Source of the DNA: Patescibacteria group bacterium
GTDB taxonomy: Bacteria; Patescibacteriota; Patescibacteriia; Patescibacteriales; CAYMCJ01
Assembly: GCA_043815345.1 (NCBI GenBank)
Contig: JBDRJA010000009.1
Coordinates: 1 to 43,724 of the forward strand
DNA length: 43,724 nt
Direction: 5' to 3'
The translations under genes and the position numbers were made by a program. The notes under the pieces were generated by a model. The model saw nothing but the letters and a program-made list of their open reading frames with translations. It ran no database searches and had not been told where the DNA came from. Below are positions 1,694-21,971 of this stretch, in pieces. Positions within the stretch are counted from its first letter, which is position 1; every line of letters begins with the position of its first letter.

Positions 1694-3292
1694 TTATTCT
1701 AATTTTCTCAATCCATATTTTATTAAATCCTCTGTCTCCATGTAACTAATTTCCTTATTCTCGGATCCAAAAGTAATTATAATTAAACGATTTTCATTTG
1801 CTTCAACTCTAGTCATTAAACAATATCCGGCCTCATCAAGATATCCTGTTTTTGAACCAATTATATTATAATTATTGGTTTTTATTAATCTATTAGTATT
1901 TCTTAGCTTATGCTTTATCTTCGTATTAATAGTGTAAAATTCATACTCCGGCATGGTACTTGCTTTCTGGATAATAGGATTAATAAACACATTCTTAGTT
2001 ATTATAGCATAATCCAGGGGAGAACTCACGTTTTCGGGCGCTAAGCCAGTAGGTTCAATAAAGTGGGTTGAAACAGCCCCCCAAGATACTACCGTATCAT
2101 TCATCTCTTTAATAAAGTTATCCCTAGATAAACCGCTAATCCGTACTAAGGTCTCAATAGTATTATTGGCCGAGCCGACTAATGATGAATAGATTAAATC
2201 TTCAATAGTTATTGTGTCGCCATCGTTTAGATTTAGCCGCGCTGATTCCCATTTATTGACATATTGATAATTATATTCCTCATCTTTAACGCTATAAGCT
2301 ATTACCCTGTCTAAACTTGGTTTAGTATCTATAAAAACTTCTACAGCGACTAATTTAGTTAAACTTGCTAAGGGTAGAGTTGTAGTAGCATTCTTTTCCC
2401 ATATTATTTCCTCATCTTTTTCTCTCATAATTATAGCCGATTTTGAGGTAATAACTGGCTCAAAGGTTGCCCCTTTCTCGGTTGTTCCTAAAACTCTTCC
2501 CTGGTTATCTGGCGCAATGTATAATGGCTCAATTCTAACGTCAGCAACACCGGCCTCTAAAGAAGCAATTTTTATAAATGCCGCCTTGTCTAAATCCACC
2601 GCCCGGTTTGGATGTAGTTTTCTATCAGGGCCGTAATCATTGACTTCTACATCAACAAATTTATTATTAGCAATATTATAAACTCGCAACCTAGATTCTT
2701 TTGGAAAATCCGGAGATGCCGTAAAATTACCTCCTTTATATGCATACCAACTGGCCTTGCCAATCGTTAAAATATCTGGATTTGATAAAACTACTATTCT
2801 AGCAAAAGGCAGATGAATTAAAGAGCGGACAAATTTCTCATTATTATAATCTTTGGTAGGCAGCGGCCTCCAAGATGAATAATTTTTATCATAAAAATAA
2901 ACCTGTTTATAATTGTTTGTAGCTTGGTTATAAGAAAATTGGATATAAAACGGCTTATGGTTATCATGGGCAATTTTATTCTTAAATTCAAACTGATATA
3001 CTTTGCTAATTTTATCCATCTGCCAAGGCATCTCCATCTCCTCATTGATTTCCAGTACCTCAACCCCCGTAGACTCGCTTAATACTCCGGGTGATAATGA
3101 TAGCTTTAAAGCACTGTCAAAAGCGCTAACTGTGTACCCTTTATTGATAGTTTCTTGATCTAAATTAATACTGTATTCACGATTAGGATTATTAGCTTTA
3201 TTAATATCTTCACTTGCAAAAACAAAATTACCGGCCAACACCAGTAATAGAAACAATAACGTTTTTAAAAATATTTGACTTAGTCTTGCCAT
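1694..3292 (-). CDS. Secreted peptidoglycan enzyme: RlpA-like DPBB domain fused to an S11-type D-alanyl-D-alanine carboxypeptidase
   Basis: N-terminal signal-like segment LLFLLLVLAGNFVFA. DPBB-like block GKASWYAYKGGNFTAS...VDVEVNDYGPDRKLHPNRAVDLDKAAF. Penicillin-binding motifs SxxK (ASLTK), SxN (GSAN) and KTG (SKTGY) lie in the C-terminal half. Confidence 0.8.
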   Translation of the reverse strand: MARLSQIFLKTLLFLLLVLAGNFVFASEDINKANNPNREYSINLDQETINKGYTVSAFDSALKLSLSPGVLSESTGVEVLEINEEMEMPWQMDKISKVYQFEFKNKIAHDNHKPFYIQFSYNQATNNYKQVYFYDKNYSSWRPLPTKDYNNEKFVRSLIHLPFARIVVLSNPDILTIGKASWYAYKGGNFTASPDFPKESRLRVYNIANNKFVDVEVNDYGPDRKLHPNRAVDLDKAAFIKIASLEAGVADVRIEPLYIAPDNQGRVLGTTEKGATFEPVITSKSAIIMREKDEEIIWEKNATTTLPLASLTKLVAVEVFIDTKPSLDRVIAYSVKDEEYNYQYVNKWESARLNLNDGDTITIEDLIYSSLVGSANNTIETLVRISGLSRDNFIKEMNDTVVSWGAVSTHFIEPTGLAPENVSSPLDYAIITKNVFINPIIQKASTMPEYEFYTINTKIKHKLRNTNRLIKTNNYNIIGSKTGYLDEAGYCLMTRVEANENRLIIITFGSENKEISYMETEDLIKYGLRKLE

Positions 3293-3331
3293 AACAATAT
3301 AATTATAACATAAAACTAAATTTCATAAAAC

Positions 3332-3402
3332 GCGGGATTAGTACAATGGTAGTACATCTGCTTCCCAAGCAGAAGACGCGAGTCCGATTCTCGTATCCCG
3401 CT
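3332..3402 (+). tRNA. tRNA-Gly (anticodon CCC)
   Basis: Hand-folded cloverleaf: acceptor GCGGGAT/ATCCCGC, D arm GTAC-AATGGTA-GTAC, anticodon arm TCTGC-TTCCCAA-GCAGA, 4-nt variable loop, T arm GCGAG-TCCGATT-CTCGT. The T-loop has C where the near-universal U55 is expected. Confidence 0.85.
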
Positions 3403-3405
3403 CAA

Positions 3406-3564
3406 TCACCATAAATAGCACAGATTTGAGTCTGGCTCACGTGCGAGTGCCTGCCCGCCTTTGCAGGCTGTCTGGAGGGAACCGCCCGTACTGAGTAGAC
3501 GAGGAGGCGGGGCGATTCTCGCCTGCCCGCCCGAAGTTCCGAGCTTAGCGAGGAACGAAGGAGG
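3406..3564. other. G+C-rich structured insert between two tRNA genes; candidate ncRNA or integration remnant
   Basis: Flanked by the exact 13-nt direct repeat gtatcccgctcaa (3393-3405 and 3565-3577), which is the 3' end of tRNA-Gly. Hairpins seen: gcctgc-N8-gcaggc (3449-3468), ccgcc..ggcgg, ggcga-ttc-tcgcc, gttcc-N11-ggaac. gcctgcccgcc occurs twice. Confidence 0.4.
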
Positions 3565-3581
3565 GTATCCCGCTCAAAAGT

Positions 3582-3654
3582 GCCGATATAGCTCAATTGG
3601 CAGAGCAATTCCTTCGTAAGGAAGAGGTTGTCGGTTCAACTCCGACTATCGGCT
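3582..3654 (+). tRNA. tRNA-Thr (anticodon CGU)
   Basis: Acceptor GCCGATA/TATCGGC, D arm GCTC-AATTGGCA-GAGC, anticodon loop TTCGTAA, T arm GTCGG-TTCAACT-CCGAC. Confidence 0.9.
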
Positions 3655-3857
3655 CACTATATGTTTGGCTTATGTTTGCTTGCCATGTTGTGTAGCGGAA
3701 TATTCGCCATCTAGGGTCTTTTGCAGTAAAGAATCTTAAAGCCCGATAGATGATCTAAAGAACTTCCTATACGGGTATTTCTTGTCTTACATTACAAGGC
3801 TCACTCGCCTTTTCCCATTAAAACGAACTCCTTTACATGCAATCAACCATAATCTAC

Positions 3858-4481
3858 TTAACATAGGTATAATATTAAATATAAAATAAATAAAACGCAG
3901 GTTATATAAATAAATATTTTAAATATTTTTAAAATATTTTTTTTATTTACCTTTCTAATAGATTTATTTCGCTTTATCTCTTTATTTAATTTTTTCTTTA
4001 TTATCTTCTTTTTGTTTTTAATATTCTTCTCTACTTTTTTAACTTCACTTTTTTTAATTATTTCTTGTTCTTTAGCTATTGCATCAACCTCTTCTTTCTC
4101 TTCCTTTTCTATTATTTCTTTCCTTTGTATTTCTTCGTTTTCTTTAAGATAATTAATACTTCTCATCTGGTTATTAAATTCCTTGGTTTTCTCTTCTGAT
4201 TTTTTTTGTTCCTTAACTGGCTCATCTTTGCCTTTTTTTTCTTTATCACTAAGAAAGGCCAGGCTAGCCAGCGATTTCTCTCTTTCGGCGTCAGATATAT
4301 AAGGCTTTCCAGTATCTTCTTTGTCCAATCGTATATCGTTTTCTGCCTGTGGAATAAACGGTATAACCTCTTCTTCTTTTTTTCTTTCCTTTTCACCTAT
4401 ATAATCTAAAACAATCTTTCTTGATCGCTTTAATTCTCCTCCGCTTAATTTTTTATTATCATTATTATTTTCTTTGACCAT
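3858..4481 (-). CDS. Hypothetical Lys/Glu-rich protein with a C-terminal transmembrane anchor
   Basis: Long ORF with an extremely charged K/E-rich body. It has a single hydrophobic tail, IFKIFIYITCVLFILYLILYLC, and follows the FtsB-like gene on the same strand. No recognisable family. Confidence 0.55.
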   Translation of the reverse strand: MVKENNNDNKKLSGGELKRSRKIVLDYIGEKERKKEEEVIPFIPQAENDIRLDKEDTGKPYISDAEREKSLASLAFLSDKEKKGKDEPVKEQKKSEEKTKEFNNQMRSINYLKENEEIQRKEIIEKEEKEEVDAIAKEQEIIKKSEVKKVEKNIKNKKKIIKKKLNKEIKRNKSIRKVNKKNILKIFKIFIYITCVLFILYLILYLC

Positions 4482-19844: not shown

Positions 19845-21353
19845 CTAGTTAACTAATTTCTCTCCAATCCTAAAAACATCTCCGGCTCCCATAAGTAAAA
19901 TCACGTCTCCCCTTTCCACCTTTTCTCTTAAATATTTCTCACACTTATCTAGGTTTGGAATATATTTAACTCTCTGTTGTTTTCGTGTTTTCGTGTTTTC
20001 GTGTTTTATTAAGCTTACTAAATCCCTACTATGCACTCCACCTTGCATTTCTCTAGCCGATCCATATATATCCAACACCACCACCTCGTCAGCTTCAAAA
20101 AAACTTTTAGAAAAATCATCTAATAAAGCCTTAGTACGAGTAAAAGTATGGGGATGAAAAACTACTTTCAATTTTCTGTCTGGATACAATTCTCGCACCG
20201 CAGCTATAGTTGCTTTAATTTCTGTAGGATGATGGGCATAATCGTCTATAATAATTGCACCTTGAAATTCCCCCAATACTTCCATCCGCCTAACTGTACC
20301 TTTGAAATCTTCTAAGTATTTCCTAATATCTACTAATTCCACTTCTAGCTCAATACAAGTAGCAATCACGGCTAAAGCATTTGAGATATTGTGTTTGCCA
20401 GCTAATTGAATGCAAAAATCACCTAACAAATTTTCCTGAAGGCGAGAATCCGGATTCTCGCCTTCAGGAAAATCTTCGTCCACTCCAAACTTCACCTTAA
20501 AAAACTGCTTACCTCCTTGCTGTTTTATATCATATGCAACATAATCTGCCGCCTCTTTAATTCCATAACTAATTGTTTTTCCTTTACAGTTTACCCTGGC
20601 CACACTTCTAATTATCGGATCATCCCAATTGGCTACTAAAAAACCTTTGCCAGAAATTTTCTTAATAAATTCTATGAATACTTGTTTATACTCAACTTCT
20701 GAAAGAAAAAAATCCGGATGATCATATTCGATATTATTAAGAAGCACTGCCTTGGGCTGAAAATATTTTAGTTTATTTTGGTATTCATCAAGCTCTGCCA
20801 CTAAATAGTCTGACGAACCGATTAAAGAAGCGCTTTCAAATTGTGGAACCCTAGCGCCGACCATCACATTAGGTTTAAATCCGGCCTTTTCTAAAACATA
20901 ACCTAACCAGGCTGTAGTAGTTGTCTTGCCATGCGAGCCAACAATAGCAATGCCATTCTTCTGATTAAAAATTTCACCCAAAGCTTGGGCATAGGTCATT
21001 GCTTTTTTCTTACCTGACAAAACCTTAGCAACCTCGACGTTCGTGTCAGAATTATAAGCAGTAGAATATACAATTAAATCAGCATCTTTGGGAATATTTT
21101 TCTCATCAAACCCTTCAATTACTTTAATTCCAGACTTTTTTAAAACCTCATCAGTCATAAATTTTTCTTCAGTGTCAGAACCGCTAACCTCATAGCCATT
21201 TCCAGCTAAATACTGCGCCAGCATTGTCATGCCTACGCCCTTAATGCCAATCATGTATATTTTTTTGATTTTAGATAAGTCCATATTACTATTGTTGTTG
21301 TTGGCGTCCTCGCCTACGACCCTACGGCGGTTTTTAAACGGACTGATTTTCAT
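19845..21353 (-). CDS. murC: UDP-N-acetylmuramate--L-alanine ligase
   Basis: IYMIGIKGVGMTMLAQ (N-terminal Rossmann), GSHGKTTTT (Mur ligase P-loop), DDYAHHPTE. The true start is probably the ATG at 21284 (MDLSKIKK...). The 23-codon upstream extension reads through a repeat. Confidence 0.92.
   Translation of the reverse strand: MKISPFKNRRRVVGEDANNNNSNMDLSKIKKIYMIGIKGVGMTMLAQYLAGNGYEVSGSDTEEKFMTDEVLKKSGIKVIEGFDEKNIPKDADLIVYSTAYNSDTNVEVAKVLSGKKKAMTYAQALGEIFNQKNGIAIVGSHGKTTTTAWLGYVLEKAGFKPNVMVGARVPQFESASLIGSSDYLVAELDEYQNKLKYFQPKAVLLNNIEYDHPDFFLSEVEYKQVFIEFIKKISGKGFLVANWDDPIIRSVARVNCKGKTISYGIKEAADYVAYDIKQQGGKQFFKVKFGVDEDFPEGENPDSRLQENLLGDFCIQLAGKHNISNALAVIATCIELEVELVDIRKYLEDFKGTVRRMEVLGEFQGAIIIDDYAHHPTEIKATIAAVRELYPDRKLKVVFHPHTFTRTKALLDDFSKSFFEADEVVVLDIYGSAREMQGGVHSRDLVSLIKHENTKTRKQQRVKYIPNLDKCEKYLREKVERGDVILLMGAGDVFRIGEKLVN
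19979..20007. repeat. 8-nt tandem repeat (gttttcgt x3 plus a partial copy) inside murC
   Basis: Three perfect units at 19979-20002. In the coding sense this is acgaaaac x3, encoding KHENTKTRK. Confidence 0.85.
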
Positions 21354-21419
21354 AGGCCAGGAGGCCGATTCAAACTGTTGTCGTTGGCGTCCTCGACGAC
21401 CCTACGGCGGTTTTTAAAC
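21301..21419. repeat. Two G+C-rich direct repeats (39 and 36 nt) on one side of the transposase gene
   Basis: 21301-21339 ttggcgtcctcgcctacgaccctacggcggtttttaaac. 21384-21419 is the same sequence lacking cct. Confidence 0.85.
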
Positions 21420-21422
21420 AAG

Positions 21423-21971
21423 CTAAAACAACTCTTTAATATCATCAATCTCTAAAACTACTTCATGATTACAATAATGATTGTGATAACTAGTATATAA
21501 GTAATTTTCAATATCTTTAACAACGTAGTGTTCCATCGCATTTAAATTTATGTATTTTCCTTTTTGTCTTATAAACCTTTTAGATAATAATATTTCTGGC
21601 CAACAGCTTTTACGCCATATCTTATTATCCCTATCCTTAGTTCTATAAGCCGACATCCTCATTTCATCCAAAATATCATACTGCTTATCCTCTCTTAAAA
21701 GCTTTAAAATTTTATGAGCTGTAAAACTTTTAAAATCACTAACTGTTTCTAGTAAGCTAAAATTATCTTTCACTTTTAACATTATATGAAGGTGATTTAT
21801 TAGAATTGTATAGGCATACACTTTCCAACCTTTATTTTCACGACAATATTTTAAACTATCTAATATTACTTGATAATATTTATTATTTCTTAAAATCGGT
21901 AATCCGTTTATTGCTTTTATGGTAAGAAAAAATAAACTGCCATCTTTTTCTGTTTGTTTTAGTGTGGGCAT
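21423..21971 (-). CDS. HUH/Y1 tyrosine transposase-like protein (IS200/RAYT, COG1943-like)
   Basis: HUH motif in ILINHLHIMLKV. C-terminal block KYINLNAMEHYVVKDIENYLYTSY resembles the YI..NP...GLV....Y.YSS region that carries the catalytic Tyr. 182 aa. Confidence 0.78.
   Translation of the reverse strand: MPTLKQTEKDGSLFFLTIKAINGLPILRNNKYYQVILDSLKYCRENKGWKVYAYTILINHLHIMLKVKDNFSLLETVSDFKSFTAHKILKLLREDKQYDILDEMRMSAYRTKDRDNKIWRKSCWPEILLSKRFIRQKGKYINLNAMEHYVVKDIENYLYTSYHNHYCNHEVVLEIDDIKELF

Follow-up and report, generated by a model that had tools for sequence, protein, structure and literature searches.

A candidate gene-less insertion element with a host-derived tail between tRNA-Gly(CCC) and tRNA-Thr(CGT) in a Patescibacteria genome

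We propose that positions 3406-3577 of a Patescibacteria contig represent a non-autonomous insertion element of 172 nt, in which a 21-nt segment of the host is duplicated and a hairpin plug is optional, a reading to which we assign a probability of roughly 55%. The element belongs to a protein-less family that resides at tRNA genes of Falkowbacteria-like Patescibacteria, and it is probably co-transcribed with the adjacent tRNAs and then trimmed off. The window, by which we mean the whole stretch of DNA that was analysed, comprises 43,724 nt of contig JBDRJA010000009.1 (assembly GCA_043815345.1, forward strand) and contains ftsEX, a DD-carboxypeptidase gene and divIC as gene neighbours of the tRNA pair, which mark the host as a bacterium. 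The assembly of this genome amounts to 1.2 Mb in 135 contigs and is 69% complete.

Results

Anatomy of the tRNA-Gly/tRNA-Thr junction

The features of the junction are listed in Table 1. In the 3' direction, the intact tRNA-Gly is followed by a 107-nt body (3406-3512), the first piece of a tail copy, the plug M2, the second piece of the tail copy, the residual AAGT and tRNA-Thr. A preliminary description of this DNA had reported an exact 13-nt repeat, and GTATCCCGCTCAA is indeed found at both 3393-3405 and 3565-3577, a recurrence within a few hundred bases for which we estimate a chance expectation of about 3e-5 at the local composition. The duplication itself is longer than was then recognized. 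Specifically, CGATTCTCG occurs at 3385-3393 and again at 3513-3521, showing that the true extent is 21 nt rather than 13; the duplicated tRNA-Gly segment ends three bases beyond the discriminator, and all 21 of its 21 nt recur as 3513-3521 plus 3565-3577, the second copy being broken into 9 + 12/13 nt by the sequence at 3522-3564.

Table 1. Features of the tRNA-Gly/tRNA-Thr junction in the window
Feature	Position	Strand	Basis
Promoter-like site TTGACT-17-TATAAT, 5' of tRNA-Gly	3275-3303	+	consensus match only (11 of 12)
tRNA-Gly(CCC), intact	3332-3402 (3' end 3402/3)	+	ARAGORN; Rfam tRNA, 67.6 bits
Left copy of duplicated segment, 21 nt, T-loop position 56 to discriminator plus CAA	3385-3405	+	direct repeats, alignment A2
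Element body part 1, A-rich linker and first hairpin region (CTCACG...GAGTG)	3406-3449	+	co-linearity with cores of other units
Hairpin module M1: CCTGCCCGCC, inner hairpin, GGAGGG	3450-3479	+	pattern match
Hairpin H2, CCGCC (3482-3486) pairing with GGCGG (3506-3510); adjoins tail copy	3480-3512	+	sequence
Right copy, piece 1, tRNA positions 56-64, CGATTCTCG	3513-3521	+	direct repeat of 3385-3393
Hairpin plug M2, 43 nt, interrupting right copy at tRNA 64/65	3522-3564	+	comparison with plugs of other genomes
Right copy, piece 2, tRNA positions 64/65-73 plus CAA	3565-3577	+	direct repeat; second 13-mer of the preliminary description
Residual spacer AAGT, likely the original Gly-Thr spacer	3578-3581	+	3-10-nt spacers at this junction in relatives
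tRNA-Thr(CGT), intact	3582-3654 (3' end 3654/5)	+	ARAGORN; Rfam

The 159 nt between the two 13-mer copies form, as had been described, a G+C-rich insert in an A+T-rich genome (about 60% G+C, 59-61%, compared with 32-34% for the locus and the genome), and this block is the longest G+C island of the assembly when an island is defined as 40 nt with at least 65% G+C. The four hairpins named in the preliminary description can all be found in the insert sequence, as can its 11-nt internal repeat, GCCTGCCCGCC, which lies at 3449-3459 and 3521-3531. The sole inverted repeat in the block connects 3443-3460 with 3505-3522 (72%), and the insert contains no ORF. Within the body, 3406-3449 aligns co-linearly with unit cores found behind tRNA-Gly(CCC) and tRNA-Gly(UCC) in a relative, genome G003, and behind tRNA-Pro in the present genome. 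In alignment A2, M1 (3450-3479) is the counterpart of the core hairpin in the G003 and contig C111 units, and the position of H2 is also filled by a hairpin in other units, its sequence being variable.

An Rfam/Infernal scan at the gathering score returned no family besides the two flanking tRNAs. When 3250-3900 was searched with cmscan at E<=10, the matches were the two tRNAs, Plastid-ycf2 on the antisense strand of tRNA-Thr and a weak glmS. The glmS match lies inside the insert and scores 18.3 bits against a gathering score of 37, and we take both this match and that to Plastid-ycf2 to be due to chance. The RtT covariance model (RF00391) gave no match in 3250-3900, and neither ARAGORN nor the Rfam tRNA model found a tRNA or tmRNA between 3404 and 3581. 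Hence, the earlier exclusion of SRP RNA, tmRNA, RNase P RNA and a cloverleaf, which had been made by eye, held in the ARAGORN and Rfam scans. The insert had also been called packed with hairpins. The hairpins exist, but folding energy alone lends them no support, in that the insert does not fold better than dinucleotide shuffles (MFE z-scores of -0.5 on the + strand and -0.7 on the - strand); the support for the predicted hairpins is comparison with relatives, not folding energy.

The hairpin module and the plug

The sequence CCTGCCCGCC, with which M1 begins, occurs 11 times in this genome compared with 0.09 expected. The pattern consisting of CCTGCCCGCC, 3-33 nt and GGAGGG is present in 13 of the 41 genomes of the order, spanning several families, and the reversed control gave 0. 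The loop of the module extends from 3 nt up to a full inner hairpin and is >100 nt in one case, and where the module lies away from tRNAs it is often found in the loop of an ordinary hairpin. A search of the genome with the whole unit showed that only the short hairpin module recurs. The hairpin pattern was also seen at 120 loci in viral contigs with a median G+C of 63%; we dismiss these as mostly chance matches, two or three of them lying in A+T-rich contigs.

Among the matches listed, seven units carry a plug of 32-44 nt that interrupts the tail at 64|65, their hosts being Gly(CCC), Gly(UCC) and Leu tRNAs, and the tails of eight other units are unsplit. Every plug starts with an unpaired CYTG or CCTTG, which is followed by a hairpin. 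In subtype 1 the basal stem has a conserved G-A mismatch, whereas subtype 2 has a perfect stem and a GAGC-NNN-AGCGA apex, and the plug in the window joins the base of subtype 1 to the apex of subtype 2. The stems of subtype 2 are compensatory (CCCCGC/GCGGGG, CCCCGT/ACGGGG, TCCCGC/GCGGGA), as judged by inspection of the nine sequences in alignment A1, where the pairing registers of the two subtypes are one base apart.

Empty and filled junctions in relatives

By means of the adjacent peptidase gene, we gathered 33 distinct orthologous Gly(CCC)-Thr(CGT) junctions from Falkowbacteria-like relatives, the closest named ones being Candidatus Falkowbacteria and Parcubacteria-group MAGs; in the nearest relatives the neighbouring protein is 54-71% identical, a distance between genus and family level. 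The order of tRNA-Gly(CCC) followed by tRNA-Thr(CGT) is kept across the taxonomic order. The spacer between the two genes ranges from 3 to 590 nt and is 3-24 nt in 6 of the 33 junctions, so that the empty-site comparison suggested at the outset did uncover relatives with short spacers. One of these, L179, has a 6-nt spacer, a tRNA-Gly that is about 95% identical to that of the window (read by eye) and an identical tail, and this junction is the empty state. The filled junctions vary in copy number. That of L086 contains one G+C-rich unit ending in the tRNA-Gly tail and that of L115 contains two in tandem; the junction in G003 has two identical units plus a third, and those in G002 and G033 have two each. 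As even the nearest relatives share only 54-71% identity in that protein and no species-level pair of filled and empty sites was found, we infer insertion here rather than loss elsewhere from the distribution. Some relics, such as that in L086, resemble another tRNA-Gly allele more than they do a decayed copy of the resident gene, which is explained better by replacement or transfer than by simple duplication and points to such replacement or transfer also at this junction.

Several other features were seen at the tRNAs of this junction. In several relatives (L084, L089, L100, L148 and L168) a conserved ORF of about 110 aa with the C-terminal motif HPYEEPAIDI lies between both tRNAs; the 130-aa reading of this ORF in L084 matched no Pfam family, and the window has no such gene. 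In L007/L082 and L009, the initial 23 nt of tRNA-Thr, present once or twice, immediately precede the intact tRNA-Thr(CGT), and the 5' half of the hairpin module comes after each copy, an arrangement that is the 5'-side counterpart of the tail copy in the window. The T-loop of the tRNA-Gly in the window (3385-3391) reads TCCGATT, with C at position 55. As C55 is also present in tRNA-Gly(CCC) of L007, L009, L010 and L017 (other relatives have TTCGATT), it looks like a trait of the lineage and not a by-product of insertion.

A family of units at other tRNA genes

About 10 of the 43 tRNA genes of this genome have part-copies of themselves within 600 nt, accompanied by G+C hairpins. Behind tRNA-Pro(GGG) there is an 85-nt unit with an exact 19-nt tail. 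On contig C128 (525-779, - strand), two 136-nt units stand in tandem behind tRNA-Lys(CUU); they are near-complete copies of tRNA-Lys, including the anticodon arm and lacking the 5' acceptor strand, with G+C inserts in the D-loop and at the T-stem. Diverged 3' units are found at Ser(GGA), Val(GAC), Val(UAC) and Gly(GCC), and the genes for Met, Leu(UAG) and Ser(UGA) are preceded by 5' fragments in which the D-loop contains a G+C hairpin. Among the matches listed, the relatives add units at Gly(UCC), Leu, Gln and Thr, and one of them, G001, has two units behind tRNA-Gly(UCC).

The units range in size from 66 to 172 nt and their bodies vary widely from one to the next. The window unit, the tRNA-Pro unit of the same genome and the G003 tRNA-Gly(CCC) units have a common order of hairpin 1, core hairpin and T-loop remainder. 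In G003, the units at Gly(CCC) on contig C15 and at Gly(UCC) on contig C29 have an identical core of about 52 nt (alignment A2, by eye), yet wherever the two tRNAs differ each tail has the letters of its own host tRNA, and the tail on C29 is unplugged. We take the combination of identical cores, host-specific tails and an unplugged copy to point to tails that are copied from the host and to a plug that is optional. The strict core pattern, searched in 201 genomes of the order, matched in the present genome and G003 only, and this core subtype is therefore confined to the family, the build itself being wider. In some units, such as that on contig C99 of G001, the body is A+T-rich and the plug is the only hairpin, and such bodies make the true boundaries of the element uncertain.

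Candidate mobilizing enzymes

As the element has no gene, it would have to be moved in trans. Integrase matches (PF00589) in this 69%-complete genome number three, on contigs C36, C28 and C89, all of which are without a tRNA. The Y1 transposase-like domain (PF01797) gave five matches, none of which adjoins a unit, the distances being kilobases, and about 50 nt downstream of one of these, on contig C19, there is a similar hairpin. The genome also contains four mini GIY-YIG ORFs, three of which adjoin tRNAs. The GIY-YIG genes beside tRNA-Trp (contig C49) and tRNA-Asp (contig C40) encode 81-94 aa, and the third, on contig C90 between tRNA-Met and tRNA-Phe, is a broken gene with a 118-aa frame and an in-frame TAG. 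The fourth, on contig C127, is on a contig without a tRNA and lies beside another G+C palindrome.

The tRNA-Trp locus (C49:222-660, - strand) consists of a relic of the 5' half of a diverged tRNA-Trp, which reaches through the anticodon loop, a perfect G+C hairpin, a GIY-YIG ORF of about 81 aa and an intact tRNA-Trp. From this layout it follows that tRNA genes in this genome are targeted by nuclease cassettes that keep a working tRNA beside the relic. There is no relic of the tRNA tail at the GIY-YIG gene behind tRNA-Asp, and neither the tail of tRNA-Met nor the 5' end of tRNA-Phe is copied in the C90 cassette. A nuclease-bearing version of the 3'-type unit seen in the window was not found.

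Discussion

Proposed mechanism

We propose that a 172-nt unit would have inserted into a formerly compact tRNA-Gly(CCC)/tRNA-Thr(CGT) junction in such a way that a whole tRNA was left on the left side and a spare tail, a second copy of tRNA positions 56-76, on the right. The tail would be taken from the host gene upon insertion and not carried by the element. This could occur as a long target-site duplication, with cuts in the T-loop and just beyond the end of the tRNA, or by copy-choice repair. The plug would be an optional add-on from the same hairpin family that either followed or accompanied insertion, and it would make deletion of the element harder, since the 21-nt repeat is then left in pieces of 9 + 12 nt. 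The protein acting in trans might be one of the mini GIY-YIG nucleases whose genes lie beside other tRNAs, or one of the Y1 (HUH) transposase-like proteins.

The block has the same orientation as both tRNAs, and the stretch from 3275-3303, where the promoter-like site lies, to the end of tRNA-Thr contains no terminator-like site. The promoter-like site and the absent terminator are compatible with a co-transcribed structured RNA that would be released by tRNA processing. Specifically, we suggest that the block and both tRNAs would be transcribed from the 3275-3303 site and the block removed by normal tRNA processing, as in the case of the E. coli RtT.

It should be noted that no mobilizing enzyme is linked to the unit in the window, that gene conversion between nearby repeats could also yield host-like tails, and that the exact upkeep of split tails might reflect selection for a role as RNA, all of which weigh against an insertion element. 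We further suggest, tentatively and as something possible rather than probable, that these units might represent an undescribed class of gene-less mobile DNA that would enter tRNA genes at fixed positions (T-loop 55|56 here, and the D-loop, the anticodon loop and T-stem 64|65 in relatives), preserve the tRNA by duplicating what lies downstream in the gene, and be moved in trans by a small nuclease recognizing the conserved CYTG-hairpin.

Alternative explanations

The rivals to an insertion element are not all mutually exclusive. If the block were a functional small RNA of the RtT or tRNA-linked-repeat type, its tRNA-like tail would direct 3' processing and its hairpins would bind a protein or RNA partner. 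The shared orientation with the tRNAs, the promoter-like site and the lack of a terminator all agree with such an RNA, as do the conserved hairpin architecture with its compensatory stems and recurring GAGC-NNN-AGCGA apex, the split tails that stay exact copies of the host in several genomes, and the precedent of the E. coli tRNA-linked repeats, which are transcribed and processed and some of which bind Hfq and CsrA (PMC8144298). A co-transcribed RNA would not, however, explain a distribution that is patchy and variable in copy number. The units are missing from many close orthologous junctions (those with 3-24-nt spacers), they occur in variable numbers, as identical tandem copies and with widely differing bodies, and the insert folds no better than shuffles and has no Rfam match. 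A function would need to be dispensable and independent of the tRNA, and we consider this explanation unlikely. A decayed local tandem duplicate of tRNA-Gly, later colonized by G+C hairpins of a REP-like or GC-cluster-like kind so that the unit itself never moved, would account for the T-stem-5'-like GCGAGT at about 3443-3448 before the hairpins, which means that the relic may cover the entire T-arm. Near-complete tRNA copies bearing hairpin inserts do exist behind the C128 tRNA-Lys, and the hairpin module is also found away from tRNAs, in ordinary hairpin loops. Against a local duplicate, the body 5' of the hairpins is dissimilar to the 5' half of tRNA-Gly and is instead co-linear with the unit cores behind tRNA-Pro and other tRNA-Gly genes, and local duplication cannot account for both of the identical cores that lie behind different tRNAs in G003. 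We therefore regard it as improbable.

The preliminary description had offered, as one of its readings, a miniature integration remnant. The part of that proposal that concerns insertion and duplication of a tRNA end fits the comparative data, whereas classical att recombination by an integrase is disfavoured. Such a remnant would derive from an integrase-mobilized integrative element, or a cis-mobilizable mini-element, with attL and attR produced by a tyrosine-recombinase crossover in the T-loop region of tRNA-Gly. Direct repeats of the T-loop-to-3' part of the tRNA do flank the insert, and repeats of this extent are reportedly a known class of tRNA integration site, from work by Williams in 2002; moreover, the tRNA stays intact and tandem accretion is seen in relatives. 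Nevertheless, there is no integrase within or beside the insert, the three Phage_integrase contigs are without a tRNA, and we count the span of the duplication, from the T-loop to the tRNA end, on the same side. Units of 66-172 nt seem small for a circular intermediate, which is our assumption, and identical cores with host-specific tails would demand a separate attP for each host. The 5'-fragment versions upstream of tRNAs are likewise atypical for integrases, and overall we rate an integrase-mobilized remnant as the least probable of these rivals.

Relation to known systems

The closest published counterparts are the tRNA-linked repeats (TLRs) of E. coli, which include the RtT repeats of the tyrT operon (Egan and Landy 1978; Rudd 1999). 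First described in 1978 and still unexplained in origin and role, TLRs stand behind tRNA or rRNA genes, and each terminates with the last 18-19 nt of its gene (PMC8144298). The units described here resemble them (Stenum et al. 2021, PMC8144298; RF00391) in their length of about 100-180 nt, in their place immediately behind a tRNA (or rRNA) gene and presumably in one transcription unit with it, in having a terminal copy of the end of the gene (18-19 nt there, 21 nt here), and in being single or tandem. They differ in that the Rfam scan gave no match in sequence or structure, the host is a member of the Patescibacteria, and the G+C hairpin modules are common to tRNA species, genera and families. 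In addition, the tail copy here begins at T-loop position 56 and is often split at 64|65, and 5'-fragment versions also exist.

Tyrosine-integrase and cis-mobilizable elements at tRNAs are alike in that the insert is enclosed by repeats of the T-loop-to-3' part of the tRNA, which stays functional, and in that copies accumulate in tandem. In contrast to these elements, the units have no integrase, are far smaller and have tails that are apparently copied from each host. Short G+C hairpin repeats of A+T-rich genomes include REP/REPIN sequences, the IS200/IS605-derived PATEs, the Rickettsia palindromic elements and the GC clusters of yeast mitochondria. As in REP/REPIN-type repeats, the module is a dispersed, short, conserved imperfect hairpin with a fixed unpaired 5' tetranucleotide (CYTG here), it lies inside the loops of other hairpins, and the genome contains Y1 transposase-like genes. 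It departs from them in its low copy number (about 11 per 1.2 Mb) and its strong tie to part-copies of tRNAs and to fixed tRNA positions, and the Y1 genes here, of which the one on C19 has a similar hairpin nearby, appear not to be flanked by the module. Free-standing GIY-YIG homing cassettes in tRNA clusters, such as phage T4 SegB, are matched in this genome by the combination of an intact tRNA, a relic and a nuclease gene, whereas the unit in the window has no ORF and its relic is a 3' tail and not a 5' piece. In the literature covered, which is incomplete, we found no description of such elements in Patescibacteria.

A TLR-like layout is seen here across tRNA species, genera and families in bacteria with genomes of about 1 Mb, in which useless DNA is normally scarce. 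The natural variation is well suited to dissection of the system: sites may be empty or filled by one or two copies, tails may be plugged or not, and identical cores come with the tails of different hosts. If the units are mobile, they would represent a new way to invade essential genes without killing them, and if the gene-less class moved in trans is real, the tRNA-linked repeats of E. coli could have the same explanation. The units single out tRNA genes as hot spots at which Patescibacteria genomes change and, in terms of annotation, account for many G+C-rich 'orphan' blocks and tRNA fragments in Patescibacteria genomes.

Other repeat families in these genomes

A second family of G+C palindromes (CCTGCC...GGCAGG) is present in the spacers of L011 and L013 and, in this genome, on C107 downstream of tRNA-Val and at C127:3690-3760 (- strand), these palindromes lying inside tRNA relics and upstream of a mini GIY-YIG ORF. 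In G001 there are at least four copies (L039, L050, L057 and L062) of a repeat whose length we estimate at about 110 nt from copies read in part. It holds a 19-nt form of the hairpin module together with a CCCGAAGCTTCGGG hairpin, and its ends may be inverted (GTTATT...AATAAC). Possibly, the repeat is a MITE-like composite of these modules. The window itself has a Y1 gene, a 182-aa IS200/RAYT-like ORF with 26.9 bits to PF01797, whose flanking repeat is a different one. Just downstream of this ORF, which covers 21684-21878 (- strand), a 24-nt sequence is repeated exactly at 21316-21339 and 21396-21419 (- strand). The repeats and the ORF look like a REP/RAYT-type pair that is unrelated in sequence to the tRNA-linked hairpins.
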